From the NCBI GenBank assembly GCA_000004985.1, contig GG738886.1: 64,000 nt of DNA; one strand, written 5' to 3'. Of this stretch, positions 1,979-37,994 are shown piece after piece (the stretch's first letter is position 1; the number at the start of each line of letters is the position of its first letter). The notes under the pieces are model-generated. The model was not told the origin of the DNA. It was given only the letters and a program-made list of their open reading frames with translations, and did not search any database. The stretch comes from Naegleria gruberi (Eukaryota). A program made the position numbers and the translations under genes.

Positions 1979-4900
1979 NNNNNNNNNNNNNNNNNNNNNN
2001 NNNNNNNNNNNNNNNNNNNNNNNNNNNNNNNNNNNNNNNNNNNNNNNNNNNNNNNNNNNNNNNNNNNNNNNNNNNNNNNNNNNNNNNNNNNNNNNNNNNN
2101 NNNNNNNNNNNNNNNNNNNNNNNNNNNNNNNNNNNNNNNNNNNNNNNNNNNNNNNNNNNNNNNNNNNNNNNNNNNNNNNNNNNNNNNNNNNNNNNNNNNN
2201 NNNNNNNNNNNNNNNNNNNNNNNNNNNNNNNNNNNNNNNNNNNNNNNNNNNNNNNNNNNNNNNNNNNNNNNNNNNNNNNNNNNNNNNNNNNNNNNNNNNN
2301 NNNNNNNNNNNNNNNNNNNNNNNNNNNNNNNNNNNNNNNNNNNNNNNNNNNNNNNNNNNNNNNNNNNNNNNNNNNNNNNNNNNNNNNNNNNNNNNNNNNN
2401 NNNNNNNNNNNNNNNNNNNNNNNNNNNNNNNNNNNNNNNNNNNNNNNNNNNNNNNNNNNNNNNNNNNNNNNNNNNNNNNNNNNNNNNNNNNNNNNNNNNN
2501 NNNNNNNNNNNNNNNNNNNNNNNNNNNNNNNNNNNNNNNNNNNNNNNNNNNNNNNNNNNNNNNNNNNNNNNNNNNNNNNNNNNNNNNNNNNNNNNNNNNN
2601 NNNNNNNNNNNNNNNNNNNNNNNNNNNNNNNNNNNNNNNNNNNNNNNNNNNNNNNNNNNNNNNNNNNNNNNNNNNNNNNNNNNNNNNNNNNNNNNNNNNN
2701 NNNNNNNNNNNNNNNNNNNNNNNNNNNNNNNNNNNNNNNNNNNNNNNNNNNNNNNNNNNNNNNNNNNNNNNNNNNNNNNNNNNNNNNNNNNNNNNNNNNN
2801 NNNNNNNNNNNNNNNNNNNNNNNNNNNNNNNNNNNNNNNNNNNNNNNNNNNNNNNNNNNNNNNNNNNNNNNNNNNNNNNNNNNNNNNNNNNNNNNNNNNN
2901 NNNNNNNNNNNNNNNNNNNNNNNNNNNNNNNNNNNNNNNNNNNNNNNNNNNNNNNNNNNNNNNNNNNNNNNNNNNNNNNNNNNNNNNNNNNNNNNNNNNN
3001 NNNNNNNNNNNNNNNNNNNNNNNNNNNNNNNNNNNNNNNNNNNNNNNNNNNNNNNNNNNNNNNNNNNNNNNNNNNNNNNNNNNNNNNNNNNNNNNNNNNN
3101 NNNNNNNNNNNNNNNNNNNNNNNNNNNNNNNNNNNNNNNNNNNNNNNNNNNNNNNNNNNNNNNNNNNNNNNNNNNNNNNNNNNNNNNNNNNNNNNNNNNN
3201 NNNNNNNNNNNNNNNNNNNNNNNNNNNNNNNNNNNNNNNNNNNNNNNNNNNNNNNNNNNNNNNNNNNNNNNNNNNNNNNNNNNNNNNNNNNNNNNNNNNN
3301 NNNNNNNNNNNNNNNNNNNNNNNNNNNNNNNNNNNNNNNNNNNNNNNNNNNNNNNNNNNNNNNNNNNNNNNNNNNNNNNNNNNNNNNNNNNNNNNNNNNN
3401 NNNNNNNNNNNNNNNNNNNNNNNNNNNNNNNNNNNNNNNNNNNNNNNNNNNNNNNNNNNNNNNNNNNNNNNNNNNNNNNNNNNNNNNNNNNNNNNNNNNN
3501 NNNNNNNNNNNNNNNNNNNNNNNNNNNNNNNNNNNNNNNNNNNNNNNNNNNNNNNNNNNNNNNNNNNNNNNNNNNNNNNNNNNNNNNNNNNNNNNNNNNN
3601 NNNNNNNNNNNNNNNNNNNNNNNNNNNNNNNNNNNNNNNNNNNNNNNNNNNNNNNNNNNNNNNNNNNNNNNNNNNNNNNNNNNNNNNNNNNNNNNNNNNN
3701 NNNNNNNNNNNNNNNNNNNNNNNNNNNNNNNNNNNNNNNNNNNNNNNNNNNNNNNNNNNNNNNNNNNNNNNNNNNNNNNNNNNNNNNNNNNNNNNNNNNN
3801 NNNNNNNNNNNNNNNNNNNNNNNNNNNNNNNNNNNNNNNNNNNNNNNNNNNNNNNNNNNNNNNNNNNNNNNNNNNNNNNNNNNNNNNNNNNNNNNNNNNN
3901 NNNNNNNNNNNNNNNNNNNNNNNNNNNNNNNNNNNNNNNNNNNNNNNNNNNNNNNNNNNNNNNNNNNNNNNNNNNNNNNNNNNNNNNNNNNNNNNNNNNN
4001 NNNNNNNNNNNNNNNNNNNNNNNNNNNNNNNNNNNNNNNNNNNNNNNNNNNNNNNNNNNNNNNNNNNNNNNNNNNNNNNNNNNNNNNNNNNNNNNNNNNN
4101 NNNNNNNNNNNNNNNNNNNNNNNNNNNNNNNNNNNNNNNNNNNNNNNNNNNNNNNNNNNNNNNNNNNNNNNNNNNNNNNNNNNNNNNNNNNNNNNNNNNN
4201 NNNNNNNNNNNNNNNNNNNNNNNNNNNNNNNNNNNNNNNNNNNNNNNNNNNNNNNNNNNNNNNNNNNNNNNNNNNNNNNNNNNNNNNNNNNNNNNNNNNN
4301 NNNNNNNNNNNNNNNNNNNNNNNNNNNNNNNNNNNNNNNNNNNNNNNNNNNNNNNNNNNNNNNNNNNNNNNNNNNNNNNNNNNNNNNNNNNNNNNNNNNN
4401 NNNNNNNNNNNNNNNNNNNNNNNNNNNNNNNNNNNNNNNNNNNNNNNNNNNNNNNNNNNNNNNNNNNNNNNNNNNNNNNNNNNNNNNNNNNNNNNNNNNN
4501 NNNNNNNNNNNNNNNNNNNNNNNNNNNNNNNNNNNNNNNNNNNNNNNNNNNNNNNNNNNNNNNNNNNNNNNNNNNNNNNNNNNNNNNNNNNNNNNNNNNN
4601 NNNNNNNNNNNNNNNNNNNNNNNNNNNNNNNNNNNNNNNNNNNNNNNNNNNNNNNNNNNNNNNNNNNNNNNNNNNNNNNNNNNNNNNNNNNNNNNNNNNN
4701 NNNNNNNNNNNNNNNNNNNNNNNNNNNNNNNNNNNNNNNNNNNNNNNNNNNNNNNNNNNNNNNNNNNNNNNNNNNNNNNNNNNNNNNNNNNNNNNNNNNN
4801 NNNNNNNNNNNNNNNNNNNNNNNNNNNNNNNNNNNNNNNNNNNNNNNNNNNNNNNNNNNNNNNNNNNNNNNNNNNNNNNNNNNNNNNNNNNNNNNNNNNN

Positions 4901-7900
4901 NNNNNNNNNNNNNNNNNNNNNNNNNNNNNNNNNNNNNNNNNNNNNNNNNNNNNNNNNNNNNNNNNNNNNNNNNNNNNNNNNNNNNNNNNNNNNNNNNNNN
5001 NNNNNNNNNNNNNNNNNNNNNNNNNNNNNNNNNNNNNNNNNNNNNNNNNNNNNNNNNNNNNNNNNNNNNNNNNNNNNNNNNNNNNNNNNNNNNNNNNNNN
5101 NNNNNNNNNNNNNNNNNNNNNNNNNNNNNNNNNNNNNNNNNNNNNNNNNNNNNNNNNNNNNNNNNNNNNNNNNNNNNNNNNNNNNNNNNNNNNNNNNNNN
5201 NNNNNNNNNNNNNNNNNNNNNNNNNNNNNNNNNNNNNNNNNNNNNNNNNNNNNNNNNNNNNNNNNNNNNNNNNNNNNNNNNNNNNNNNNNNNNNNNNNNN
5301 NNNNNNNNNNNNNNNNNNNNNNNNNNNNNNNNNNNNNNNNNNNNNNNNNNNNNNNNNNNNNNNNNNNNNNNNNNNNNNNNNNNNNNNNNNNNNNNNNNNN
5401 NNNNNNNNNNNNNNNNNNNNNNNNNNNNNNNNNNNNNNNNNNNNNNNNNNNNNNNNNNNNNNNNNNNNNNNNNNNNNNNNNNNNNNNNNNNNNNNNNNNN
5501 NNNNNNNNNNNNNNNNNNNNNNNNNNNNNNNNNNNNNNNNNNNNNNNNNNNNNNNNNNNNNNNNNNNNNNNNNNNNNNNNNNNNNNNNNNNNNNNNNNNN
5601 NNNNNNNNNNNNNNNNNNNNNNNNNNNNNNNNNNNNNNNNNNNNNNNNNNNNNNNNNNNNNNNNNNNNNNNNNNNNNNNNNNNNNNNNNNNNNNNNNNNN
5701 NNNNNNNNNNNNNNNNNNNNNNNNNNNNNNNNNNNNNNNNNNNNNNNNNNNNNNNNNNNNNNNNNNNNNNNNNNNNNNNNNNNNNNNNNNNNNNNNNNNN
5801 NNNNNNNNNNNNNNNNNNNNNNNNNNNNNNNNNNNNNNNNNNNNNNNNNNNNNNNNNNNNNNNNNNNNNNNNNNNNNNNNNNNNNNNNNNNNNNNNNNNN
5901 NNNNNNNNNNNNNNNNNNNNNNNNNNNNNNNNNNNNNNNNNNNNNNNNNNNNNNNNNNNNNNNNNNNNNNNNNNNNNNNNNNNNNNNNNNNNNNNNNNNN
6001 NNNNNNNNNNNNNNNNNNNNNNNNNNNNNNNNNNNNNNNNNNNNNNNNNNNNNNNNNNNNNNNNNNNNNNNNNNNNNNNNNNNNNNNNNNNNNNNNNNNN
6101 NNNNNNNNNNNNNNNNNNNNNNNNNNNNNNNNNNNNNNNNNNNNNNNNNNNNNNNNNNNNNNNNNNNNNNNNNNNNNNNNNNNNNNNNNNNNNNNNNNNN
6201 NNNNNNNNNNNNNNNNNNNNNNNNNNNNNNNNNNNNNNNNNNNNNNNNNNNNNNNNNNNNNNNNNNNNNNNNNNNNNNNNNNNNNNNNNNNNNNNNNNNN
6301 NNNNNNNNNNNNNNNNNNNNNNNNNNNNNNNNNNNNNNNNNNNNNNNNNNNNNNNNNNNNNNNNNNNNNNNNNNNNNNNNNNNNNNNNNNNNNNNNNNNN
6401 NNNNNNNNNNNNNNNNNNNNNNNNNNNNNNNNNNNNNNNNNNNNNNNNNNNNNNNNNNNNNNNNNNNNNNNNNNNNNNNNNNNNNNNNNNNNNNNNNNNN
6501 NNNNNNNNNNNNNNNNNNNNNNNNNNNNNNNNNNNNNNNNNNNNNNNNNNNNNNNNNNNNNNNNNNNNNNNNNNNNNNNNNNNNNNNNNNNNNNNNNNNN
6601 NNNNNNNNNNNNNNNNNNNNNNNNNNNNNNNNNNNNNNNNNNNNNNNNNNNNNNNNNNNNNNNNNNNNNNNNNNNNNNNNNNNNNNNNNNNNNNNNNNNN
6701 NNNNNNNNNNNNNNNNNNNNNNNNNNNNNNNNNNNNNNNNNNNNNNNNNNNNNNNNNNNNNNNNNNNNNNNNNNNNNNNNNNNNNNNNNNNNNNNNNNNN
6801 NNNNNNNNNNNNNNNNNNNNNNNNNNNNNNNNNNNNNNNNNNNNNNNNNNNNNNNNNNNNNNNNNNNNNNNNNNNNNNNNNNNNNNNNNNNNNNNNNNNN
6901 NNNNNNNNNNNNNNNNNNNNNNNNNNNNNNNNNNNNNNNNNNNNNNNNNNNNNNNNNNNNNNNNNNNNNNNNNNNNNNNNNNNNNNNNNNNNNNNNNNNN
7001 NNNNNNNNNNNNNNNNNNNNNNNNNNNNNNNNNNNNNNNNNNNNNNNNNNNNNNNNNNNNNNNNNNNNNNNNNNNNNNNNNNNNNNNNNNNNNNNNNNNN
7101 NNNNNNNNNNNNNNNNNNNNNNNNNNNNNNNNNNNNNNNNNNNNNNNNNNNNNNNNNNNNNNNNNNNNNNNNNNNNNNNNNNNNNNNNNNNNNNNNNNNN
7201 NNNNNNNNNNNNNNNNNNNNNNNNNNNNNNNNNNNNNNNNNNNNNNNNNNNNNNNNNNNNNNNNNNNNNNNNNNNNNNNNNNNNNNNNNNNNNNNNNNNN
7301 NNNNNNNNNNNNNNNNNNNNNNNNNNNNNNNNNNNNNNNNNNNNNNNNNNNNNNNNNNNNNNNNNNNNNNNNNNNNNNNNNNNNNNNNNNNNNNNNNNNN
7401 NNNNNNNNNNNNNNNNNNNNNNNNNNNNNNNNNNNNNNNNNNNNNNNNNNNNNNNNNNNNNNNNNNNNNNNNNNNNNNNNNNNNNNNNNNNNNNNNNNNN
7501 NNNNNNNNNNNNNNNNNNNNNNNNNNNNNNNNNNNNNNNNNNNNNNNNNNNNNNNNNNNNNNNNNNNNNNNNNNNNNNNNNNNNNNNNNNNNNNNNNNNN
7601 NNNNNNNNNNNNNNNNNNNNNNNNNNNNNNNNNNNNNNNNNNNNNNNNNNNNNNNNNNNNNNNNNNNNNNNNNNNNNNNNNNNNNNNNNNNNNNNNNNNN
7701 NNNNNNNNNNNNNNNNNNNNNNNNNNNNNNNNNNNNNNNNNNNNNNNNNNNNNNNNNNNNNNNNNNNNNNNNNNNNNNNNNNNNNNNNNNNNNNNNNNNN
7801 NNNNNNNNNNNNNNNNNNNNNNNNNNNNNNNNNNNNNNNNNNNNNNNNNNNNNNNNNNNNNNNNNNNNNNNNNNNNNNNNNNNNNNNNNNNNNNNNNNNN

Positions 7901-10900
7901 NNNNNNNNNNNNNNNNNNNNNNNNNNNNNNNNNNNNNNNNNNNNNNNNNNNNNNNNNNNNNNNNNNNNNNNNNNNNNNNNNNNNNNNNNNNNNNNNNNNN
8001 NNNNNNNNNNNNNNNNNNNNNNNNNNNNNNNNNNNNNNNNNNNNNNNNNNNNNNNNNNNNNNNNNNNNNNNNNNNNNNNNNNNNNNNNNNNNNNNNNNNN
8101 NNNNNNNNNNNNNNNNNNNNNNNNNNNNNNNNNNNNNNNNNNNNNNNNNNNNNNNNNNNNNNNNNNNNNNNNNNNNNNNNNNNNNNNNNNNNNNNNNNNN
8201 NNNNNNNNNNNNNNNNNNNNNNNNNNNNNNNNNNNNNNNNNNNNNNNNNNNNNNNNNNNNNNNNNNNNNNNNNNNNNNNNNNNNNNNNNNNNNNNNNNNN
8301 NNNNNNNNNNNNNNNNNNNNNNNNNNNNNNNNNNNNNNNNNNNNNNNNNNNNNNNNNNNNNNNNNNNNNNNNNNNNNNNNNNNNNNNNNNNNNNNNNNNN
8401 NNNNNNNNNNNNNNNNNNNNNNNNNNNNNNNNNNNNNNNNNNNNNNNNNNNNNNNNNNNNNNNNNNNNNNNNNNNNNNNNNNNNNNNNNNNNNNNNNNNN
8501 NNNNNNNNNNNNNNNNNNNNNNNNNNNNNNNNNNNNNNNNNNNNNNNNNNNNNNNNNNNNNNNNNNNNNNNNNNNNNNNNNNNNNNNNNNNNNNNNNNNN
8601 NNNNNNNNNNNNNNNNNNNNNNNNNNNNNNNNNNNNNNNNNNNNNNNNNNNNNNNNNNNNNNNNNNNNNNNNNNNNNNNNNNNNNNNNNNNNNNNNNNNN
8701 NNNNNNNNNNNNNNNNNNNNNNNNNNNNNNNNNNNNNNNNNNNNNNNNNNNNNNNNNNNNNNNNNNNNNNNNNNNNNNNNNNNNNNNNNNNNNNNNNNNN
8801 NNNNNNNNNNNNNNNNNNNNNNNNNNNNNNNNNNNNNNNNNNNNNNNNNNNNNNNNNNNNNNNNNNNNNNNNNNNNNNNNNNNNNNNNNNNNNNNNNNNN
8901 NNNNNNNNNNNNNNNNNNNNNNNNNNNNNNNNNNNNNNNNNNNNNNNNNNNNNNNNNNNNNNNNNNNNNNNNNNNNNNNNNNNNNNNNNNNNNNNNNNNN
9001 NNNNNNNNNNNNNNNNNNNNNNNNNNNNNNNNNNNNNNNNNNNNNNNNNNNNNNNNNNNNNNNNNNNNNNNNNNNNNNNNNNNNNNNNNNNNNNNNNNNN
9101 NNNNNNNNNNNNNNNNNNNNNNNNNNNNNNNNNNNNNNNNNNNNNNNNNNNNNNNNNNNNNNNNNNNNNNNNNNNNNNNNNNNNNNNNNNNNNNNNNNNN
9201 NNNNNNNNNNNNNNNNNNNNNNNNNNNNNNNNNNNNNNNNNNNNNNNNNNNNNNNNNNNNNNNNNNNNNNNNNNNNNNNNNNNNNNNNNNNNNNNNNNNN
9301 NNNNNNNNNNNNNNNNNNNNNNNNNNNNNNNNNNNNNNNNNNNNNNNNNNNNNNNNNNNNNNNNNNNNNNNNNNNNNNNNNNNNNNNNNNNNNNNNNNNN
9401 NNNNNNNNNNNNNNNNNNNNNNNNNNNNNNNNNNNNNNNNNNNNNNNNNNNNNNNNNNNNNNNNNNNNNNNNNNNNNNNNNNNNNNNNNNNNNNNNNNNN
9501 NNNNNNNNNNNNNNNNNNNNNNNNNNNNNNNNNNNNNNNNNNNNNNNNNNNNNNNNNNNNNNNNNNNNNNNNNNNNNNNNNNNNNNNNNNNNNNNNNNNN
9601 NNNNNNNNNNNNNNNNNNNNNNNNNNNNNNNNNNNNNNNNNNNNNNNNNNNNNNNNNNNNNNNNNNNNNNNNNNNNNNNNNNNNNNNNNNNNNNNNNNNN
9701 NNNNNNNNNNNNNNNNNNNNNNNNNNNNNNNNNNNNNNNNNNNNNNNNNNNNNNNNNNNNNNNNNNNNNNNNNNNNNNNNNNNNNNNNNNNNNNNNNNNN
9801 NNNNNNNNNNNNNNNNNNNNNNNNNNNNNNNNNNNNNNNNNNNNNNNNNNNNNNNNNNNNNNNNNNNNNNNNNNNNNNNNNNNNNNNNNNNNNNNNNNNN
9901 NNNNNNNNNNNNNNNNNNNNNNNNNNNNNNNNNNNNNNNNNNNNNNNNNNNNNNNNNNNNNNNNNNNNNNNNNNNNNNNNNNNNNNNNNNNNNNNNNNNN
10001 NNNNNNNNNNNNNNNNNNNNNNNNNNNNNNNNNNNNNNNNNNNNNNNNNNNNNNNNNNNNNNNNNNNNNNNNNNNNNNNNNNNNNNNNNNNNNNNNNNNN
10101 NNNNNNNNNNNNNNNNNNNNNNNNNNNNNNNNNNNNNNNNNNNNNNNNNNNNNNNNNNNNNNNNNNNNNNNNNNNNNNNNNNNNNNNNNNNNNNNNNNNN
10201 NNNNNNNNNNNNNNNNNNNNNNNNNNNNNNNNNNNNNNNNNNNNNNNNNNNNNNNNNNNNNNNNNNNNNNNNNNNNNNNNNNNNNNNNNNNNNNNNNNNN
10301 NNNNNNNNNNNNNNNNNNNNNNNNNNNNNNNNNNNNNNNNNNNNNNNNNNNNNNNNNNNNNNNNNNNNNNNNNNNNNNNNNNNNNNNNNNNNNNNNNNNN
10401 NNNNNNNNNNNNNNNNNNNNNNNNNNNNNNNNNNNNNNNNNNNNNNNNNNNNNNNNNNNNNNNNNNNNNNNNNNNNNNNNNNNNNNNNNNNNNNNNNNNN
10501 NNNNNNNNNNNNNNNNNNNNNNNNNNNNNNNNNNNNNNNNNNNNNNNNNNNNNNNNNNNNNNNNNNNNNNNNNNNNNNNNNNNNNNNNNNNNNNNNNNNN
10601 NNNNNNNNNNNNNNNNNNNNNNNNNNNNNNNNNNNNNNNNNNNNNNNNNNNNNNNNNNNNNNNNNNNNNNNNNNNNNNNNNNNNNNNNNNNNNNNNNNNN
10701 NNNNNNNNNNNNNNNNNNNNNNNNNNNNNNNNNNNNNNNNNNNNNNNNNNNNNNNNNNNNNNNNNNNNNNNNNNNNNNNNNNNNNNNNNNNNNNNNNNNN
10801 NNNNNNNNNNNNNNNNNNNNNNNNNNNNNNNNNNNNNNNNNNNNNNNNNNNNNNNNNNNNNNNNNNNNNNNNNNNNNNNNNNNNNNNNNNNNNNNNNNNN

Positions 10901-13900
10901 NNNNNNNNNNNNNNNNNNNNNNNNNNNNNNNNNNNNNNNNNNNNNNNNNNNNNNNNNNNNNNNNNNNNNNNNNNNNNNNNNNNNNNNNNNNNNNNNNNNN
11001 NNNNNNNNNNNNNNNNNNNNNNNNNNNNNNNNNNNNNNNNNNNNNNNNNNNNNNNNNNNNNNNNNNNNNNNNNNNNNNNNNNNNNNNNNNNNNNNNNNNN
11101 NNNNNNNNNNNNNNNNNNNNNNNNNNNNNNNNNNNNNNNNNNNNNNNNNNNNNNNNNNNNNNNNNNNNNNNNNNNNNNNNNNNNNNNNNNNNNNNNNNNN
11201 NNNNNNNNNNNNNNNNNNNNNNNNNNNNNNNNNNNNNNNNNNNNNNNNNNNNNNNNNNNNNNNNNNNNNNNNNNNNNNNNNNNNNNNNNNNNNNNNNNNN
11301 NNNNNNNNNNNNNNNNNNNNNNNNNNNNNNNNNNNNNNNNNNNNNNNNNNNNNNNNNNNNNNNNNNNNNNNNNNNNNNNNNNNNNNNNNNNNNNNNNNNN
11401 NNNNNNNNNNNNNNNNNNNNNNNNNNNNNNNNNNNNNNNNNNNNNNNNNNNNNNNNNNNNNNNNNNNNNNNNNNNNNNNNNNNNNNNNNNNNNNNNNNNN
11501 NNNNNNNNNNNNNNNNNNNNNNNNNNNNNNNNNNNNNNNNNNNNNNNNNNNNNNNNNNNNNNNNNNNNNNNNNNNNNNNNNNNNNNNNNNNNNNNNNNNN
11601 NNNNNNNNNNNNNNNNNNNNNNNNNNNNNNNNNNNNNNNNNNNNNNNNNNNNNNNNNNNNNNNNNNNNNNNNNNNNNNNNNNNNNNNNNNNNNNNNNNNN
11701 NNNNNNNNNNNNNNNNNNNNNNNNNNNNNNNNNNNNNNNNNNNNNNNNNNNNNNNNNNNNNNNNNNNNNNNNNNNNNNNNNNNNNNNNNNNNNNNNNNNN
11801 NNNNNNNNNNNNNNNNNNNNNNNNNNNNNNNNNNNNNNNNNNNNNNNNNNNNNNNNNNNNNNNNNNNNNNNNNNNNNNNNNNNNNNNNNNNNNNNNNNNN
11901 NNNNNNNNNNNNNNNNNNNNNNNNNNNNNNNNNNNNNNNNNNNNNNNNNNNNNNNNNNNNNNNNNNNNNNNNNNNNNNNNNNNNNNNNNNNNNNNNNNNN
12001 NNNNNNNNNNNNNNNNNNNNNNNNNNNNNNNNNNNNNNNNNNNNNNNNNNNNNNNNNNNNNNNNNNNNNNNNNNNNNNNNNNNNNNNNNNNNNNNNNNNN
12101 NNNNNNNNNNNNNNNNNNNNNNNNNNNNNNNNNNNNNNNNNNNNNNNNNNNNNNNNNNNNNNNNNNNNNNNNNNNNNNNNNNNNNNNNNNNNNNNNNNNN
12201 NNNNNNNNNNNNNNNNNNNNNNNNNNNNNNNNNNNNNNNNNNNNNNNNNNNNNNNNNNNNNNNNNNNNNNNNNNNNNNNNNNNNNNNNNNNNNNNNNNNN
12301 NNNNNNNNNNNNNNNNNNNNNNNNNNNNNNNNNNNNNNNNNNNNNNNNNNNNNNNNNNNNNNNNNNNNNNNNNNNNNNNNNNNNNNNNNNNNNNNNNNNN
12401 NNNNNNNNNNNNNNNNNNNNNNNNNNNNNNNNNNNNNNNNNNNNNNNNNNNNNNNNNNNNNNNNNNNNNNNNNNNNNNNNNNNNNNNNNNNNNNNNNNNN
12501 NNNNNNNNNNNNNNNNNNNNNNNNNNNNNNNNNNNNNNNNNNNNNNNNNNNNNNNNNNNNNNNNNNNNNNNNNNNNNNNNNNNNNNNNNNNNNNNNNNNN
12601 NNNNNNNNNNNNNNNNNNNNNNNNNNNNNNNNNNNNNNNNNNNNNNNNNNNNNNNNNNNNNNNNNNNNNNNNNNNNNNNNNNNNNNNNNNNNNNNNNNNN
12701 NNNNNNNNNNNNNNNNNNNNNNNNNNNNNNNNNNNNNNNNNNNNNNNNNNNNNNNNNNNNNNNNNNNNNNNNNNNNNNNNNNNNNNNNNNNNNNNNNNNN
12801 NNNNNNNNNNNNNNNNNNNNNNNNNNNNNNNNNNNNNNNNNNNNNNNNNNNNNNNNNNNNNNNNNNNNNNNNNNNNNNNNNNNNNNNNNNNNNNNNNNNN
12901 NNNNNNNNNNNNNNNNNNNNNNNNNNNNNNNNNNNNNNNNNNNNNNNNNNNNNNNNNNNNNNNNNNNNNNNNNNNNNNNNNNNNNNNNNNNNNNNNNNNN
13001 NNNNNNNNNNNNNNNNNNNNNNNNNNNNNNNNNNNNNNNNNNNNNNNNNNNNNNNNNNNNNNNNNNNNNNNNNNNNNNNNNNNNNNNNNNNNNNNNNNNN
13101 NNNNNNNNNNNNNNNNNNNNNNNNNNNNNNNNNNNNNNNNNNNNNNNNNNNNNNNNNNNNNNNNNNNNNNNNNNNNNNNNNNNNNNNNNNNNNNNNNNNN
13201 NNNNNNNNNNNNNNNNNNNNNNNNNNNNNNNNNNNNNNNNNNNNNNNNNNNNNNNNNNNNNNNNNNNNNNNNNNNNNNNNNNNNNNNNNNNNNNNNNNNN
13301 NNNNNNNNNNNNNNNNNNNNNNNNNNNNNNNNNNNNNNNNNNNNNNNNNNNNNNNNNNNNNNNNNNNNNNNNNNNNNNNNNNNNNNNNNNNNNNNNNNNN
13401 NNNNNNNNNNNNNNNNNNNNNNNNNNNNNNNNNNNNNNNNNNNNNNNNNNNNNNNNNNNNNNNNNNNNNNNNNNNNNNNNNNNNNNNNNNNNNNNNNNNN
13501 NNNNNNNNNNNNNNNNNNNNNNNNNNNNNNNNNNNNNNNNNNNNNNNNNNNNNNNNNNNNNNNNNNNNNNNNNNNNNNNNNNNNNNNNNNNNNNNNNNNN
13601 NNNNNNNNNNNNNNNNNNNNNNNNNNNNNNNNNNNNNNNNNNNNNNNNNNNNNNNNNNNNNNNNNNNNNNNNNNNNNNNNNNNNNNNNNNNNNNNNNNNN
13701 NNNNNNNNNNNNNNNNNNNNNNNNNNNNNNNNNNNNNNNNNNNNNNNNNNNNNNNNNNNNNNNNNNNNNNNNNNNNNNNNNNNNNNNNNNNNNNNNNNNN
13801 NNNNNNNNNNNNNNNNNNNNNNNNNNNNNNNNNNNNNNNNNNNNNNNNNNNNNNNNNNNNNNNNNNNNNNNNNNNNNNNNNNNNNNNNNNNNNNNNNNNN

Positions 13901-15500
13901 NNNNNNNNNNNNNNNNNNNNNNNNNNNNNNNNNNNNNNNNNNNNNNNNNNNNNNNNNNNNNNNNNNNNNNNNNNNNNNNNNNNNNNNNNNNNNNNNNNNN
14001 NNNNNNNNNNNNNNNNNNNNNNNNNNNNNNNNNNNNNNNNNNNNNNNNNNNNNNNNNNNNNNNNNNNNNNNNNNNNNNNNNNNNNNNNNNNNNNNNNNNN
14101 NNNNNNNNNNNNNNNNNNNNNNNNNNNNNNNNNNNNNNNNNNNNNNNNNNNNNNNNNNNNNNNNNNNNNNNNNNNNNNNNNNNNNNNNNNNNNNNNNNNN
14201 NNNNNNNNNNNNNNNNNNNNNNNNNNNNNNNNNNNNNNNNNNNNNNNNNNNNNNNNNNNNNNNNNNNNNNNNNNNNNNNNNNNNNNNNNNNNNNNNNNNN
14301 NNNNNNNNNNNNNNNNNNNNNNNNNNNNNNNNNNNNNNNNNNNNNNNNNNNNNNNNNNNNNNNNNNNNNNNNNNNNNNNNNNNNNNNNNNNNNNNNNNNN
14401 NNNNNNNNNNNNNNNNNNNNNNNNNNNNNNNNNNNNNNNNNNNNNNNNNNNNNNNNNNNNNNNNNNNNNNNNNNNNNNNNNNNNNNNNNNNNNNNNNNNN
14501 NNNNNNNNNNNNNNNNNNNNNNNNNNNNNNNNNNNNNNNNNNNNNNNNNNNNNNNNNNNNNNNNNNNNNNNNNNNNNNNNNNNNNNNNNNNNNNNNNNNN
14601 NNNNNNNNNNNNNNNNNNNNNNNNNNNNNNNNNNNNNNNNNNNNNNNNNNNNNNNNNNNNNNNNNNNNNNNNNNNNNNNNNNNNNNNNNNNNNNNNNNNN
14701 NNNNNNNNNNNNNNNNNNNNNNNNNNNNNNNNNNNNNNNNNNNNNNNNNNNNNNNNNNNNNNNNNNNNNNNNNNNNNNNNNNNNNNNNNNNNNNNNNNNN
14801 NNNNNNNNNNNNNNNNNNNNNNNNNNNNNNNNNNNNNNNNNNNNNNNNNNNNNNNNNNNNNNNNNNNNNNNNNNNNNNNNNNNNNNNNNNNNNNNNNNNN
14901 NNNNNNNNNNNNNNNNNNNNNNNNNNNNNNNNNNNNNNNNNNNNNNNNNNNNNNNNNNNNNNNNNNNNNNNNNNNNNNNNNNNNNNNNNNNNNNNNNNNN
15001 NNNNNNNNNNNNNNNNNNNNNNNNNNNNNNNNNNNNNNNNNNNNNNNNNNNNNNNNNNNNNNNNNNNNNNNNNNNNNNNNNNNNNNNNNNNNNNNNNNNN
15101 NNNNNNNNNNNNNNNNNNNNNNNNNNNNNNNNNNNNNNNNNNNNNNNNNNNNNNNNNNNNNNNNNNNNNNNNNNNNNNNNNNNNNNNNNNNNNNNNNNNN
15201 NNNNNNNNNNNNNNNNNNNNNNNNNNNNNNNNNNNNNNNNNNNNNNNNNNNNNNNNNNNNNNNNNNNNNNNNNNNNNNNNNNNNNNNNNNNNNNNNNNNN
15301 NNNNNNNNNNNNNNNNNNNNNNNNNNNNNNNNNNNNNNNNNNNNNNNNNNNNNNNNNNNNNNNNNNNNNNNNNNNNNNNNNNNNNNNNNNNNNNNNNNNN
15401 NNNNNNNNNNNNNNNNNNNNNNNNNNNNNNNNNNNNNNNNNNNNNNNNNNNNNNNNNNNNNNNNNNNNNNNNNNNNNNNNNNNNNNNNNNNNNNNNNNNN
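1979..15500. other. Assembly gap: 13,522 consecutive N
   Basis: Uninterrupted run of n. The three giant 'ORFs' spanning it in the track are X-translation artifacts. Confidence 0.99.
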
Positions 15501-31816: not shown

Positions 31817-31828
31817 CACTAGAAATTT
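31817..31828. repeat. Left terminal inverted repeat CACTAGAAATTT
   Basis: Exact reverse complement of 36707..36718. Confidence 0.75.
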
Positions 31829-31831
31829 GCA

Positions 31832-31848
31832 GTAGAAAATGATGATTT
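31832..31848. repeat. Subterminal inverted repeat GTAGAAAATGATGATTT (left copy; partner at 36652..36668)
   Basis: 17/17 identity with the reverse complement of 36652..36668. Confidence 0.7.
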
Positions 31849-31983
31849 AGCTTTGCGACCAATCAAAAATTGGATTGGGTTGAAAAAAAATCGGGACGAA
31901 CTGTTGCGGGTTTTGTATTGGTCAGAGTAACCGATTGAATTAGGTGCATCACACGTGTTTAATAAATTAATATATTATTAAAT

Positions 31984-33012
31984 TTATTGGTTTTGTTGTT
32001 TATGTTTATTCAATGATTCCTTTTGATAGTCATCATAGAAGTCCATTACTTTACAAGCCTTGTGAGCAAAATAAACAAGTCCAAGTCTGGTTCCTGAAGT
32101 AATAGGAGCAACTTGATGTTTATATTTGTTGCCTTTGAACAATAGCAAATCACCAGGTTTAACAAATACCTTACAATTTTGCTCTGGAAACTCCAAATAC
32201 CCTTCTTTCTCATCATAATCTCCCAAGTAAAATAAAACACTAGGTGTAGCATCACGGGTGTCCTTGTGAGCATTCTTGATTCTATGTTTCTCTATCTGTG
32301 GTTCTAAATAGTTAAAAGCAGTGGATGGATAAATACAATTATTCAAAATATGATATGGGTGTGGTAACGATGTCAAATAATTAATTGTTCTTGGAGAGAG
32401 TATTTCCAATGCAGCAGTAATTGTTTCATCTAGCATTGGATTTACAATTCCAATTAAATATTCTCCCAACTGTGTCTTTAGATCTGATGTAATATAATTC
32501 ATAGGCATGTTATTCTCCAAAACTCCACTGTATCCATGATTTTTCTTTCTTGCCTCTTGGATTTTTAATAAATTTTCATTAAATTCCTGAATAATATCCT
32601 TTTTCAACACTCCCGGTAAGAAAGCAAGATCTATTTGACCATCTTTCGAAATAATAAAATGTGGACTTGTTATTTTAGTAAACCACTTTTCCGTGTTAAA
32701 TATTAAATTACTATTACTATAATCAACATTAAATTTCCGTTTTAATTTCTTTAATAATCCTTTAAGTCTGGTTTTTTTATAAAGACCACCCTTTTCACCT
32801 TTTTTCACAGTCAATGATTCCTGCAAATTCACCGACACGGGTCCTAAGGAATGCGTATCAGTTAAAAGGCTAGTAGATGGCTTTTGTCTTTTGTTATCAT
32901 TTTTGTTGTTGTTATTGTTGTTCCTTCTTTTCGTTATTGTTGTTATTGATGTTGTTGTTCTTGATGTTTGTTGATGACATTTTTTATTGTTATTTCTTGT
33001 TGACCGTTCTTG
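31984..33012 (-). CDS. 2-oxoglutarate/Fe(II)-dependent dioxygenase (double-stranded beta-helix) with an H-K-D iron motif (TET/JBP-like or AlkB-like). The open frame has no initiator ATG and overlaps the transposase 3' end in the +1 frame.
   Basis: Motifs AHKDTRD ... VKPGDLLLFKGNKYKHQV ... GTRLGLVYF give the HxD...H...R facial triad with a 50-aa spacer. The frame is open from 33012 to the stop at 31984. The first in-frame ATG is at 32508; the track 'M' at 32838 is GTG. A good acceptor tgaatttgcag|GAA lies at about 32819. Confidence 0.7.
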   Translation of the reverse strand, partial: QERSTRNNNKKCHQQTSRTTTSITTITKRRNNNNNNKNDNKRQKPSTSLLTDTHSLGPVSVNLQESLTVKKGEKGGLYKKTRLKGLLKKLKRKFNVDYSNSNLIFNTEKWFTKITSPHFIISKDGQIDLAFLPGVLKKDIIQEFNENLLKIQEARKKNHGYSGVLENNMPMNYITSDLKTQLGEYLIGIVNPMLDETITAALEILSPRTINYLTSLPHPYHILNNCIYPSTAFNYLEPQIEKHRIKNAHKDTRDATPSVLFYLGDYDEKEGYLEFPEQNCKVFVKPGDLLLFKGNKYKHQVAPITSGTRLGLVYFAHKACKVMDFYDDYQKESLNKHKQQNQ

Positions 33013-35812
33013 TCAACGCAGCAAACGCTGCTGTTGTTCTTCTGACTTCAGACACAGCTTTCAATTTTCCTCTTGTTCTTTGCTGTTCTTCATCTACATG
33101 TTCAGCAGCAGTCTTGTTAGTTGGGATGGTGTTTACCTTGTTTGTGGAAATGTGGTATTCTTCTAAATCTGCTGGTACAACAACAGTTCCTTGACAACAT
33201 TGGTGTGGTTGGAAAAGTCTTGTATCTGCTTCTCTCTCGCATAGCTGTTGAAGAATAACTTCATCATTATTCAATTTTACAGTATAATCTTCCTTCAATT
33301 CTTCCAATCTCTTTTTCGTTAACGACCGTGGATGTGGTAAAAGGAAGGTGTTTGGTAGTATTGTTGTTAACAAGAGTATTCTAAGTTTTCGTAGTATCAC
33401 TTGAGCAAGTAATTTCCCCTCCAATCCTAATGAAATGATGGTTCTCTCTTCAACAGGCTGAATACTAAAAACCTTCTTCAATAAATCTTTGTTTTCATCA
33501 ATACCAAAATCCATTCCACTTGGAAGAACAACACCATTGGAACTAAACATTTGTGAATAATCTTTGGTGTTCGAAAATAAGGAATCATGGTAGGTGTGAA
33601 GATGACCACCACCTTTGCTAGAGCCGAAGTTAATCGTGTCCAATTCTTCAATATGACTACTCTCGAAAGCCTGTGTTTCGAAGAGTTTAACATGACCAAC
33701 TCGTTCTTTCAATGGGATGATATGTTTCACCAAAATGTGTGCATACCATGACTTTCCAGGAAATCCTTGTACAGTAGTGATATATAATTTCCAGAATTTT
33801 GAAAGAGAATCGGAAAGAACATCCATTGGCTTATCATAATCAATGTTGTGAAATACCTGTTTCAAACTATGCCATAAATCCTTTGTTTTCTCAGATTCAA
33901 AGAATGGAGCCATTACATTAATGTTTTCTAAAAGAGTATTACAAGTATTGCCATGCAAAAATATTCTCACTTCGTTCCAATCCTCATCCTCCACCTTATT
34001 AATATATTCTAAACCCTTAATTTTTGTAACGGCAGTCCAAAATTTCTCCTTTTCTTTCATTCCACTCAAAGTAATTCTTAGTATATTTTCGCATAATCTT
34101 TCCTTTGCATGAAGTACACAAATAATAATATTACTCGCTGGTAATCCCAATATACATCCAAGCTCTGTTAGTGTTCGTGGTCTGTGATGTTTGGTGCAAA
34201 TTGGGAATGTGATATTACAAAATGGACACCAACTATCCTGTTTAACTCCAGGACAAACTTCACCGAGAGCTTTCAAGTCCATCGTAAGGAAAACATCTAC
34301 ACTGCAATGATACGATCCAATAGTAATACCATTCTTTCTTATAATCTCAATCTCCTTTTTAAAATGCTCAGCTACATGTTTGATTTCTCCTTCATCTCCC
34401 TTCCAAATGGCCAGTGGTGCACATACAGCTCTGGACTGACCGGTTCCAAAACATTTACTGTTAATAACAGTAATATATATCGTTGTCAATTTAGAATTTG
34501 CTGCATAATCCAAATTCAATGCAACAATTAAATCTTTTGTTTCCTTTTTGTCTTGTTCACATAAAGGCCGTCCCTTATCTTTCATCCAACCAATCCACTT
34601 CTTATGTTGCAGAGCGTAACAACATAGTGTTGGGAAAATTGAATGGTATATTAATTTACCCTCTCCTTCTAATGTCAACACTTTCAAATTGAAAAAGTCT
34701 GAACAAAGCAAATCAGTTGATGACTGAGCATGTTGAAGAATACTTGATGAAGAGAGATCATTAACATTTCCTTCATTTCTAAACATGTCAACTGTTTTGT
34801 TGGAAACCTGTTGTCTATTCTTCACCACCACTTGCTTAAGGATTGTTGTATTAATTGTTGAGCTATATGTAGGTTTTCTTTTCTTCTTTTTGGGTGTTTC
34901 TTTTCCAGATTGTTGTACCTTTTCTATTTTTCTTTTTTGAGATTCTTCCCATTGTTTTCCCTTGATTTTTGAAATTTCTACTCTCTCATTCTCAAACACC
35001 TTGTCAGTGGAAGTGGTTTTTTTGGTTTGATGGGATGTTTCTTGTTTCGAAATAAATCCCTCTTCATGTAATCTCTTTTTATCCAATAGATCATTCCTTA
35101 GAAGGATTCCAAGAAATGAATAAATGTTAGTAAACCCCTCCATCTTTGCTAATAAATCATGACCACCTAATCTCATCAATAATCTTTCACCTTTTTTGTT
35201 TTTGGAAGTTATTTTCGAATAATCACTTTTCTTGTACTTGAATGAATTTGTTAAAATGTTGTCCTTCATCATGGTCAACCCAAAATGGTCCTTAATATCC
35301 ATATAATACCTCAAACCATCTGGTTCCATGTATGTCTTATCGCTGGTAGATCCTTTTCCAATGATGTTTTCAATTGGTTTGGAATTTTTAGAATAATATT
35401 GATTTATTATTCTTGTGTTCCATTGGTCAACCATATTTGGAGAGACAATATTTTCTTGGCCTGAATTTGAGGTAGATGATATTGGAATGGTTTGAGATGG
35501 AGGAGGGTAAGAAAACATTGTTTGTGCAACAGTATGTGAAGTAGTTGATGGTTGTGAGTGGAATGAATTTTGATGAAACATGGGCGGAAATTGTGTTGAG
35601 TATGGAAAGATTGTTTGGGGAGGAAATGTTGGCGTATTGTAGTTAAAATAGGGATTGTGAAAGGGATTTATAAATGATTGGTCTTGTGATGGTTGTGGCT
35701 GTGATTCGATAATTGGTGTTTGTGACGAATATGTTGTGCTAATGTTATCCAGGTCCAATACAGAAGTCCAACCACTCTCCGATTGACAATCATCATGATG
35801 GCAATATGTCAT
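32990..35812 (-). CDS. Transposase, TNP2 / Transposase_21-like (CACTA-Plavaka superfamily), 940 aa, with a Q/P/S-rich N-terminus
   Basis: True ATG at 35812. Core segment ...LIVALNLDYAANSK...SYHCSVDVFLTMDLKALGEVCPGVKQDSWCPFCNITFPICTKHH matches the conserved DFPA..G..SGWS....ACP.C block of TNP2-family transposases. Codon usage (CGG, GGG, CAG, ACG, GAG) departs from neighbouring host genes. It sits between the TIRs. Confidence 0.6.
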   Translation of the reverse strand: MTYCHHDDCQSESGWTSVLDLDNISTTYSSQTPIIESQPQPSQDQSFINPFHNPYFNYNTPTFPPQTIFPYSTQFPPMFHQNSFHSQPSTTSHTVAQTMFSYPPPSQTIPISSTSNSGQENIVSPNMVDQWNTRIINQYYSKNSKPIENIIGKGSTSDKTYMEPDGLRYYMDIKDHFGLTMMKDNILTNSFKYKKSDYSKITSKNKKGERLLMRLGGHDLLAKMEGFTNIYSFLGILLRNDLLDKKRLHEEGFISKQETSHQTKKTTSTDKVFENERVEISKIKGKQWEESQKRKIEKVQQSGKETPKKKKRKPTYSSTINTTILKQVVVKNRQQVSNKTVDMFRNEGNVNDLSSSSILQHAQSSTDLLCSDFFNLKVLTLEGEGKLIYHSIFPTLCCYALQHKKWIGWMKDKGRPLCEQDKKETKDLIVALNLDYAANSKLTTIYITVINSKCFGTGQSRAVCAPLAIWKGDEGEIKHVAEHFKKEIEIIRKNGITIGSYHCSVDVFLTMDLKALGEVCPGVKQDSWCPFCNITFPICTKHHRPRTLTELGCILGLPASNIIICVLHAKERLCENILRITLSGMKEKEKFWTAVTKIKGLEYINKVEDEDWNEVRIFLHGNTCNTLLENINVMAPFFESEKTKDLWHSLKQVFHNIDYDKPMDVLSDSLSKFWKLYITTVQGFPGKSWYAHILVKHIIPLKERVGHVKLFETQAFESSHIEELDTINFGSSKGGGHLHTYHDSLFSNTKDYSQMFSSNGVVLPSGMDFGIDENKDLLKKVFSIQPVEERTIISLGLEGKLLAQVILRKLRILLLTTILPNTFLLPHPRSLTKKRLEELKEDYTVKLNNDEVILQQLCEREADTRLFQPHQCCQGTVVVPADLEEYHISTNKVNTIPTNKTAAEHVDEEQQRTRGKLKAVSEVRRTTAAFAALTRTVNKK

Positions 35813-35880
35813 TATGATATTTCTTTTTGAAATATTTGAAAAAACCGTTACAGAAATAATTTAATTAAATGTAAATTTTA

Positions 35881-36567
35881 TTAGAAGAAATGGAATTCAT
35901 CTTCATCATCGTACTTTATCTTCGTATCATAAGCAAAATGCATCGTGACTTCACCAGATTCAGTATCAAAAATAAAGGAAATGTTCTTCACTTGTAAAAG
36001 ATATTGGGTAACAATGTAGTTGTCCTCTATCTGGGTGGCACTAGTAATGACTTGTTGACCCCAGTTATCAAATATATCCAATACAGGAAGATGAGATGTA
36101 AATCTATATCCAATACAAGGAACCTTATACTTAATGCCATGTCTTGTAACTGTTCTATCAGAGTGGAAAAAGGTAGCACCTAACATGCTTTGAAACATGA
36201 CTTGAAATACACCAAGTTCAACAGAGCCACATCCAACGTAACTTCTTTTATCAATACCTCCCAACTTCAGCAATCTATTGATTTTCACTCGAGCACAATT
36301 AGCCAATACTTGGAATGATCTGGCAGCAAAATCTTTCTCACTTTCGCATAAATCGTCATATGTGGTGGAAAGAGGTTGGATTCTTGGTAACCCGTGTTCC
36401 ATGATGATGTCTTTGAAGTCATATGAAGAAGTTTCCTCCTTTCGTTGTTGTTGGATTTGGAGGTCTACATGGTTGTTTGTTGGTGAAGTAATTGGCACAT
36501 CAAACATATCGATATCACCTTCATCCAAGATGGTCTCAGTGATATATACTTGTTGTTGTGTATTCAT
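35881..36567 (-). CDS. Transposon-internal 228-aa hypothetical protein (possible accessory/DNA-binding ORF)
   Basis: True ATG at 36567, 140 nt inside the right TIR. It ends 68 nt before the transposase ATG. No family recognised (ARVKINRLLKLGGIDKRSYVGCGSVELGVFQ...). Confidence 0.45.
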   Translation of the reverse strand: MNTQQQVYITETILDEGDIDMFDVPITSPTNNHVDLQIQQQRKEETSSYDFKDIIMEHGLPRIQPLSTTYDDLCESEKDFAARSFQVLANCARVKINRLLKLGGIDKRSYVGCGSVELGVFQVMFQSMLGATFFHSDRTVTRHGIKYKVPCIGYRFTSHLPVLDIFDNWGQQVITSATQIEDNYIVTQYLLQVKNISFIFDTESGEVTMHFAYDTKIKYDDEDEFHFF

Positions 36568-36706
36568 TGTGTTTGTTGGTTTTTTTGTTGTTGTTGTTGG
36601 TAGGAGAGAGTGATAGGGTCGTTCATTTTATAGTCTTTTTTTTTGTAAGAAAAATCATCATTTTCTACCAGGCTTAGCTTGGCCAGGGCATTTTTAGCTT
36701 TGATGT

Positions 36707-36718
36707 AAATTTCTAGTG
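36707..36718. repeat. Right terminal inverted repeat AAATTTCTAGTG
   Basis: Exact reverse complement of 31817..31828. Confidence 0.75.
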
Positions 36719-37083
36719 ATTCATAATTTTGAACATTGAAAAGAGTTTATTATGTTGATAATTGCTCTGAATCCACTTACCTCTGAGGTGACATCTTACA
36801 TTGGAGCAAATTCTGCTGCGCTAGTTGAAAGAAGATGGAAGAAGCAGTTGCTACTGAAATAATGGAAAGAAATATTATTAAGGAATTGTTAATAATAGAT
36901 GAGGTTAACATCAACCATTCGAATACATAACATGAATTGCAAATAGAAGACAAATGGCTTCTAGGAGCACATAGAGAGAGCACTCCATAACATTTTAGGT
37001 TTTGAAAATTAAAGTTCAACATTGTTCGATTCTAATTAAAAAGTTGCAAACAATTTTACCTTTCAAATTATTCATAAAAAAAA

Positions 37084-37994
37084 ATGGGCAATAAACAATC
37101 TAACCATCATCATCACCAACAACAACAACAGTCTTCTTCCACGAGCACCTTCACACCAACAACTATTCCGGTTTCTAATGAAGAGGCCTACAGAAGAGAA
37201 ATGGAAATTTGTAGACAATACGAAATTGAAAGTAAGATGAGAGAAATGCATGAAGCCAAGTTTCATCAATATTCGGAAAATAAGGAGCCAGCATTGCAAA
37301 ATCTTCAATTGGTATTAATAATTGATCACTCTGGATCAATGGGTTCTTTTGGTAGGTTTTTTTTGTGAAATAATTTTTATTCTAATTGGAAACTGAACAA
37401 GATGAGGATGCAACAGGTCAAAATCGTTCCAAGGGCTTGGTTGATTCTAATCATTGGACACGTTATGATAATGTTATTCAAGCAGCTAAATATCTTTCTG
37501 AAAGTATATTTCAATATGATAAGGATGGAAAGGTACCACTTATTTTCTTTGATTCAAATGTTAGAGAAGTGATTGTTGACAGTATTCCAAGATTAGTTGC
37601 TGCATTTGAAAAAAATCAACCAAATTCAAGTACCAATTTATTAGGAGCTCTTGAATTAGCATTTAAAAATCATGTTAATGATCATGAAAATGTATTATTT
37701 ATTGTTTTCACAGATGGTAGTCCTAACGGAGGTCAAGAACCAAAAATCAAACAATTAATTCAAGACAAGTTGACCAAACCAGATCCTAATGGAAACAGAT
37801 TGAATATTTTATTTATTCGTCATGGTGATGATATCTCTGCAATTAATTTTTTGAAACATTTGGATGATTGTGAGGCAATTGGAAATAATGTTGACACCAA
37901 GTCAGATAATGCTATTTATGCTCTTGGACCAAAGAATTTAATTCTCAATTCTATATTTGAACATATGGATGCTGAATTTTTACAATATGTTTAA
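37084..37994 (+). CDS. von Willebrand factor A (vWA) domain protein with an N-terminal MGNKQS (N-myristoylation-type) start and a His/Gln-rich linker. Exons are 37084..37351 and 37402..37994, with a 50-nt intron.
   Basis: MIDAS motif LVLIIDHSGSMGS. Conserved IVFTDGSPNGG. Intron gtaggt...tctaattgg...caag with a CTAAT branch. The phase-1 junction gives ...MGSF-D-EDATGQ... Confidence 0.8.

Follow-up and report, generated by a model that had tools for sequence, protein, structure and literature searches.

We analyzed a 64,000-nt stretch of Naegleria gruberi DNA (GenBank assembly GCA_000004985.1, contig GG738886.1; hereafter the window), in which a transposon carries a Tet dioxygenase gene directly behind its transposase gene. 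This Tet copy has probably lost its own start codon recently, rather than being joined to the transposase by splicing or frameshifting. The 4.9-kb Naegleria transposon, which combines terminal inverted repeats (TIRs) of the form CACTAG..., a first open reading frame (ORF1) and a transposase of the RAG1/Transib fold (ORF2), would have taken up as cargo a 5-methylpyrimidine dioxygenase of the NgTet1 type. The Tet would be a separate gene whose translation normally begins at an AUG of its own (MTT...), and the start would have been lost here, most likely by an ATG-to-ATA change at 32946-32944 (plus-strand C to T). Next in likelihood is a 1-nt insertion near 32923, which would cut ATG 32980 off from the body of Tet. 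Past the lost start, the frame would be open by chance for 22 more codons of A-rich sequence, reaching 23 nt into ORF2. No transposase-Tet fusion protein would be made, and little or no full-length enzyme, unless a low-efficiency near-cognate start is used (AUA 32946, ACG 32934 or GUG 32838). For this Tet copy, we infer in which direction the mutation went, how recent it is and how far the gene is expressed; the lesion would be recent because the remaining Tet ORF is intact and free of relaxed constraint.

The open Tet frame and its missing start codon

The original prediction described an oxygenase frame that has no start codon and overlaps the end of a transposase gene, and this layout was confirmed. 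On the minus strand, the open frame follows a TGA at 33015-33013, continues for 342 sense codons (from 33012) and ends at a TAA at 31986-31984. Its in-frame ATGs are confined to positions 32508, 32502, 32436 and 32046, and the start placed at 32838 by the ORF caller is a GTG. The 940-aa ORF occupies 35812-32990 of the same strand, with its stop 23 nt within the open Tet frame, and three-frame translation places the Tet frame at an offset of +1. Conservation of the C-terminal tail of this ORF reaches right to the stop (FAALTRTV, compared with FDALTYAV in the homologue P0004), so the overlapped 23 nt belong to ORF2. The overlap is not statistically unusual, since the open part upstream of the colinear start amounts to only 22 codons, for which the probability of meeting no stop is about 0.26 at the local composition (53% A, 15% T). 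NgTet1 has no methionine from residue 1 to its NSMPFNY motif at about residue 149 (by direct reading; residues 2-78 were verified against the 4LT5 chain and the rest was aligned), and on this comparison the long ATG-free stretch is a trait of the Tet family. With such a methionine-poor N-terminus, loss of one start leaves no in-frame ATG until 32508, at about codon 170.

The position of the lost start was sought by comparison with NgTet1 and with P0001, a metagenomic relative encoded at locus L005. NgTet1 begins MTTFKQQ... and P0001 begins MTTHNTE..., with a conserved TH..GP segment 29 residues past the methionine in both. The window Tet frame has ITT (ATA ACA ACA, 32946-32938) 30 residues ahead of THSLGP, and MAFFT pairs this ITT with the MTT of the homologues. 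Counted from ATA 32946, the protein has 320 aa compared with 321 for NgTet1. The BLASTP registers lie one residue apart, with query residue 22 matching subject residue 21 in NgTet1 and query residue 21 matching subject residue 20 in P0001. We scored the candidate starts by frameshift-aware protein-to-DNA alignment against NgTet1 and P0001, respectively. A start at ATA 32946 without any shift scored 56 and 53, a start at ATG 32980 with one shift near 32923-32935 scored 48 and 43, and a start at ATG 32900 with one shift scored 36 and 31. These alignments show that ATA 32946 is colinear with the ATG of the homologues. That it is the ancestral start after an ATG-to-ATA change is the simplest reading of them, probable rather than certain. 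The second-best reading of the loss is a 1-nt insertion after ATG 32980 (the G at about 32923), and the context of this ATG, TAAAAAATG, is the same as that of the Tet start in L005. An intron linking ATG 32980 or ATG 32900 to the Tet frame was rejected, there being no GT between 32977 and about 32845. At each of the three Tet loci, short out-of-frame upstream ORFs (uORFs) run across the region of the Tet start (window, 32980 and 32900; L004, 6711; L005, 9-16), and these may represent translational control or chance occurrences in AT-rich sequence.

Several points weigh against the favoured account, a separate Tet gene with its start lost at ATA 32946. The leader is of low complexity (A/AAC-rich) and its alignments are non-unique; a DNA alignment to L005 can put the ATG of that locus elsewhere. 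The combination of ATG 32980 with a shift trails ATA 32946 only by about the frameshift penalty itself, and chance alone would place I-T-T at the right position in a few per cent of cases, by a rough estimate. The genes are also very tightly packed and co-oriented, which leaves little room for a promoter belonging to Tet and is the sole feature that fits coupled expression with the transposase. Finally, sequence alone does not distinguish a real null mutation from an error in sequencing or from a working non-AUG start.

The condition of the remaining frame bears on these last two alternatives. Across 227 core columns, the window Tet has nine unique substitutions at positions where the other three Tets agree, compared with seven in P0001, 14 in NgTet1 (a biochemically active enzyme) and 23 in P0002, a second metagenomic relative. 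By this count, the window Tet ORF is under no relaxed constraint and carries no sign of decay, so the lesion would be recent, or the sequence is in error, or translation from a near-cognate codon continues. A functional gene of the last kind, initiating in the Tet frame at AUA 32946, at ACG 32934 (with an A at -3) or at GUG 32838 or 32832, would retain the full catalytic domain. The intact ORF and its lack of surplus unusual substitutions are as expected of such a gene, and products from 32838 or upstream would span the region of the NgTet1 crystal constructs (5CG8 begins at query residue 20 of the GTG-initiated ORF). We nevertheless regard near-cognate initiation as unlikely, given that AUG is used by all homologues, that the out-of-frame AUGs at 32980 and 32900 would catch scanning ribosomes first, and that, of the near-cognate starts, AUA is one of the weakest in the eukaryotes studied so far.

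A sequencing or assembly error, behind which an ordinary gene would have a true ATG at 32946 or one base fewer near 32923, is improbable to a similar degree. One base change or indel in a low-complexity stretch would restore a normal start, and the scaffold belongs to a draft assembly and includes a 13.5-kb run of N (a scaffold gap at 1979-15500 of the window). Neither candidate site lies within a long homopolymer, however, and the intact state of the neighbouring long ORFs (940 and 802 aa) points to good base quality.

The original prediction had instead favoured a link to the transposase, through a splice from an ORF2 donor to an acceptor in the Tet frame. The GT and AG sites that it named are present in the sequence, and phase-compatible pairs exist among three co-oriented, tightly packed ORFs, the best-looking being AAG/GTAAAC at 33137/33136 with TTTGCAG/GAA at 32821/32820. 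Maize En/Spm, which makes TnpA and TnpD through alternative splicing, offers a precedent. There are, however, 151 in-phase GT..AG pairs by chance, which makes the phase compatibility of the named pairs uninformative, and the minus strand from 31984 to 34420 has no GTRNGT donor at all. The named acceptor would also delete a conserved segment (THSLGPVSVN, the TH..GP region), and conservation of the ORF2 tail reaches as far as the stop. Moreover, Tet lies on the opposite strand in the related loci L003 and L004 (which encode P0002), and in-frame stops precede it in L005. A transposase-Tet fusion made by splicing is therefore very unlikely, and this part of the original prediction was not supported. 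Candidate introns elsewhere in the window measure 37-107 nt, a small set for which the GTRNGT donor was itself the search filter. As an example of local splice style, a vWA-like gene (LVLIIDHSGSMG..., 37084-37994 on the plus strand) is apparently split by a short intron starting GTAGGT at 37352.

Programmed +1 frameshifting at the end of ORF2 (AAG AAA UAA C, with the U skipped to enter the Tet frame) would likewise yield an ORF2-Tet fusion, and we consider it highly improbable. The Tet frame does open 23 nt ahead of the ORF2 stop, as this mechanism requires, and AAA-UAA is a +1-shift motif in Euplotes. AAA before a stop is nonetheless common in an A-rich genome, and an open overlap is expected by chance (the probability of about 0.26 given above). 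The RNA past the stop is unstructured (minimum free energy -0.34 kcal/mol, z 0.85), the ORF2/Tet arrangement is not kept in relatives, and those relatives translate Tet independently. To our knowledge, no programmed +1 frameshifting mechanism is known in Heterolobosea.

Least probable of all is internal initiation at Met-32508, also raised in the original prediction. This is the first in-frame AUG, and all iron and 2-oxoglutarate (2OG) ligands lie downstream of it, so that a 174-aa protein would keep HxD...H...R. Such a protein would lack 146 N-terminal residues, including the equivalent of the base-contacting Asn147 (the methionine is the M of LENNMPMNY), and a functional product is unlikely. 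It would also lack the N-terminal helices, a region kept in all homologues that forms one layer of the three-layer fold of NgTet1 (PMC4678852).

The various routes to coupling can be put together in a bolder form, in which Tet was re-oriented to follow the RAG1-like transposase immediately and, with no AUG of its own, is expressed through coupling to ORF2, via an AAA-UAA +1 shift or a non-canonical splice. If so, a transposase tethered to a 5-methylcytosine (5mC) dioxygenase would demethylate DNA wherever the transposase binds. We hold this to be decidedly unlikely, and favour recent loss of the Tet start codon.

Identity of the transposase and the Tet dioxygenase

The assignment of the 940-aa ORF as a transposase held, with a revised affiliation. 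A Pfam scan of ORF2 gave no match at E<=0.1, including to Transposase_21 (Tnp2, PF02992). Its close homologues are a protein of Naegleria lovaniensis (P0003, 56% identity) and metagenomic proteins, and a profile of its conserved core recovered 90 proteins among 1.84 billion representatives. Pfam matches among 54 remote homologues comprised RAG1 in five (best E 1.9e-7), Tnp2 in one, TNP1/En/Spm in one and the Ulp1 protease in two; the single PF02992 match was below the cut-off. The two remote homologues with a C-terminal Ulp1 (Peptidase_C48) domain are P0020 and P0024. Ulp1 domains occur in some plant CACTA and MULE elements.

When searched against the PDB, a three-sequence profile of the ORF2 core returned nothing relevant. 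A 55-sequence family profile matched amphioxus RAG1L (6B40, E 6.6e-10), vertebrate RAG1 (E 4.9e-9) and Helicoverpa Transib (6PQN, E 3.2e-4), in alignments that cover the second catalytic Asp, the CxxC and HxxxxH motifs and the catalytic Glu. In ORF2 these are D512, C529/C532, H692/H697 and E717, corresponding in RAG1 numbering to D708, C727/C730, H937/H942 and E962, and D435 is the first Asp. An AlphaFold2 (AF2) model built from three sequences was unusable (predicted local distance difference test score, pLDDT, 44), and the 55-sequence alignment was used instead, giving a pLDDT of 80.9 and a predicted template modelling score of 0.80. With this model, the top 28 Foldseek matches in the PDB were all RAG1 or HzTransib (best E 4.8e-9, TM score about 0.5, more than 530 columns). 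Judged by its profile matches and predicted structure, ORF2 is a DDE transposase of the RAG1/Transib fold, in the CMC/Transib clade as defined by Kojima (PMC12730594). The original label of an En/Spm-like element is thus roughly right at the superfamily level, as the termini begin CACTA(G), while the strict En/Spm Tnp2 domain is unmatched.

The oxygenase ORF is a genuine Fe(II)/2OG dioxygenase, as had been proposed. A Pfam scan of it gave no match, while a search of the PDB matched NgTet1 (4LT5, chain residues 59-325) at E 9e-94, and BLASTP gave 51% identity to NgTet1 over 299 aa (E 9e-111). The iron triad and the 2OG-binding Arg are kept, with AHKD, YKH and GTRLG aligning with NgTet1 H229/D231, H279 and R289, respectively. 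The base-contact positions are kept as well, with LENNMP, TRD and VYFAHK aligning with N147, D234, F295 and H297, which reportedly act in base recognition in NgTet1 (the description being that of Hashimoto, 2014). On these alignments, the window Tet is an NgTet1-type TET/JBP dioxygenase, for which oxidation of 5mC or T is a prediction.

Close relatives of this Tet are few. Besides NgTet1, a collection of 5.8 billion proteins yielded only P0001 and P0002, both metagenomic, and NgTet1 itself was not among the matches; a second protein search with a four-sequence Tet profile again returned just these two. Scans of IMG/VR with the Tet and of JGI metagenomes with the Tet alignment found nothing, and a search of metagenomes for the DNA pattern ACGCATTCCTTNGGACCC gave 25 chance loci, none of which encodes a Tet.

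The transposon and its relatives

The element is bounded by inverted repeats CACTAGAAATTT(G/A)CA at 31817 and 36718 and occurs as a single copy within the window (Table 1). Its genes are arranged as ORF1, a 68-nt spacer, ORF2, a 43-nt spacer and Tet (counted from 32946), all co-oriented. The termini read CACTAG...CTAGTG in the window and in L004, and CACTAC...GTAGTG in L001, an element of N. lovaniensis; all fit the form CA(C)...(G)TG. We sought a clean 3- or 5-bp target-site duplication at the flanks of the window element, L004 and L001 and found none; the flanking sequences are TTC/ATTC, TAC/AAAC and TGA/TCA, respectively.

Table 1. Positions in the window of the transposon, its genes and the sites discussed in the text.
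Feature	Position	Strand	Basis or remark
Whole transposon, 4,902 bp	31817..36718	-	TIRs; termini homologous to L004/L001, same polarity; carries minus-strand ORF1, ORF2 and Tet
TIR, Tet-side (distal) end, CACTAGAAATTTGCA	31817..31831	+	14/15 positions match the other end
Subterminal repeat GTAGAAAATGATGATTT	31832..31848	+	Inverted partner at 36652-36668
Tet reading frame, 320 codons + stop	31984..32946	-	Alignments to NgTet1, with which it is colinear
Tet key residues	HxD 32268-32260; distal His 32118-32116; 2OG-binding Arg 32088-32086	-	Alignment
Second out-of-frame uORF, MITKDKSHLLAF then stop	32862..32900	-	Three-frame translation
Out-of-frame uORF in the ORF2 frame, MSSTNIKNNNINNNNNEKKEQQ then stop	32912..32980	-	Would be the ancestral start on the alternative reading, in which one G at about 32923 was inserted
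ATA codon (ITT...) at the site of the NgTet1/P0001 ATG (MTT...)	32944..32946	-	Presumed mutated start
Upstream continuation of the Tet frame, 22 codons, including the 23-nt ORF2 overlap	32947..33012	-	Read as a chance-open non-coding leader (P about 0.26)
ORF2, 940 aa, RAG1/Transib-fold DDE transposase	32990..35812	-	Profile, motif and structure-model matches
ORF2 catalytic and zinc positions	D435 34510-34508; D512 34279-34277; C529/C532 34228-34217; H692/H697 33739-33722; E717 33664-33662		
ORF1, 228 aa, conserved, no family assignment	35881..36567	-	48-68% identical to the ORF before ORF2 in L001, L002 and L004
TATAAAATG motif, preceding the ORF1 ATG by about 60 nt	36624..36632	-	Conserved in the window, L001 and L004
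TIR, ORF1-side end, CACTAGAAATTTACA	36704..36718	-	Inverted-repeat search

The terminal regions of all TIR-bounded elements share common motifs at the same offsets and with the same polarity. The GAAAATGATG core of the subterminal repeat is also found near both ends of L001. At the ORF1 side, the TATAAAATG motif lies about 60-100 nt inside the terminus in all three TIR-bounded elements (L001, about 5049-5057; L004, about 530-540), and it is probably the TATA box of the ORF1 promoter. At the distal side, GAAAATGATG, CCAATCA.AAA and GAAAAAAAT, read inward, are conserved in the window (31850-31900) and at the distal ends of L001 and L004. They may serve as binding sites for the transposase or act as a promoter that faces inward. 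In L004, the last of them (GAAAAAAAT) adjoins the Tet ATG. We rejected the idea that the distal end of the window element is the leftover of an L004-like Tet leader after an inversion; the motifs occur in L001 too, which has no Tet, and so are element sequence rather than a Tet remnant.

A Pfam scan of ORF1 gave no match. Six of its Cys and His residues are invariant across four elements (C91, C113, H135, H143, C151 and H210), which suggests metal binding. Outside the element, a consensus GTAAGT donor (36775-36780, minus strand) lies 57 nt beyond the ORF1-side TIR and ends an 81-aa ORF of doubtful reality; the element might have landed in or beside a host intron.

The related elements differ in whether Tet is present and in how it is oriented. 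L001 (N. lovaniensis PYSW02000007.1, 4965-8998) has ORF1 and ORF2 without Tet, between perfect 13-nt TIRs (CACTACAACTTAC), which become 16 nt if the flanking TGA/TCA is counted. Both of its ORFs are annotated as hypothetical proteins, and the gene for its 230-aa ORF1 is annotated over 909 nt, which means that the annotators placed an intron in it. L002 also has ORF1 and ORF2, and Tet is absent. L004 (437-6762) has perfect 13-nt TIRs (CACTAGAGAGTAC) with Tet inside them, and is 99.8% identical to L003 (71-6383), which comes from a different metagenome. Because the similarity between L003 and L004 ends exactly at CACTAG and their flanks differ, this comparison indicates that they are two independent insertions, evidence of mobility for a related element. 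Their Tet (P0002) lies on the strand opposite ORF2, with its own ATG about 100 nt from the distal TIR. It is inverted relative to the window Tet, yet the distal subterminal motifs keep their polarity, which points to inversion of the cargo or to separate capture.

In L005, which encodes P0001, two in-frame stops stand just before the Tet ATG (KKK-stop-MMFIVIH-stop-K, followed by MTT...). The first 12 nt of this locus (AAAAAGAAATGA) resemble the end of ORF2 in the window (AACAAGAAATAA), a weak suggestion that L005 is likewise ordered with ORF2 first and Tet second. Taken as a set, these sequence comparisons show Tet to be an optional, independently translated cargo in the related elements.

Comparison with known systems

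The closest characterized counterpart of the cargo is NgTet1 (PDB 4LT5, 5CG8/5CG9), which the window Tet resembles in sequence (51% identity), in its near-equal length (320 compared with 321 aa), in the N-terminal layout xTT...TH..GP and in the conservation of all metal-, 2OG- and base-contacting residues. It differs in having no AUG at the colinear start. The window gene itself follows the transposase gene immediately, within the TIRs of an element. A TET gene between the TIRs of an element encoding its own transposase is found both in the window (Tet 31984-32946 within 31817-36718) and in L004.

Fungi provide the known parallel for this arrangement in their TET+ DNA transposons, which include the CMC/Transib members EnSpm, ESTA and Plavaka (Kojima 2025, PMC12730594). 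In these, as in the window element, the TIRs of a DDE transposon enclose a TET/JBP gene as a passive passenger, the gene varies in orientation and Tet-less sisters exist; TET ORFs without an N-terminal methionine are also mentioned for the fungal elements (PMC12730594). The window element differs in its host, a heterolobosean amoeboflagellate, and in its Tet, which is of the NgTet1 type and not of the fungal PU, AG or PE types. Its ORF2 also has no direct Pfam match, a conserved ORF1 is present and there is no clear target-site duplication.

With Transib, RAG1 and the RAG1L of ProtoRAG, the window element shares the transposase fold (Foldseek probability 1.00), the aligned second D, CxxC, HxxxxH and E, and CAC...GTG termini. 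The identity of ORF2 to these proteins is just 11-13%, however, no 5-bp target-site duplication is seen, and in place of a RAG2-like partner there is the 228-aa ORF1 upstream. Maize En/Spm (CACTA) has in common with it CACTA-type termini, subterminal repeats, several co-oriented ORFs and a transposase in the broader CMC/Transib clade, but the window ORF2 has no Pfam Transposase_21 match and the relevant region has no consensus splice donors.

From its gene content and termini, the window element is a heterolobosean TET+ DNA transposon whose transposase has the RAG1/Transib fold and whose cargo is of the NgTet1 type; TET+ transposons were already known in fungi. We found no report of TET-carrying transposons in Naegleria in the literature searched, which did not extend to Iyer et al. 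2014 and Hashimoto et al. 2014, and the TET-carrying transposons characterized in that literature are fungal only (PMC12730594).

The missing start codon is most likely a mundane lesion and should not be taken as evidence of a fusion protein. NgTet1-family enzymes serve widely as models of TET in structural work and biotechnology, and the present element shows that they can be mobile-element cargo, carried with a RAG1/Transib-fold transposase in heteroloboseans. In fungi, TET cargo is thought to aid the escape of elements from methylation-based silencing (PMC12730594), and a Naegleria TET+ transposon would extend this idea of an arms race to a distant eukaryotic lineage. It would also fit the sparse 5mC of N. 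gruberi, which is concentrated on repeats, with 5-hydroxymethylcytosine not detectable (PMC12344493), and would give a reason why this species has multiple Tet paralogues. For the RAG1/Transib family, it would add a protist branch with ORF1 as a conserved partner.

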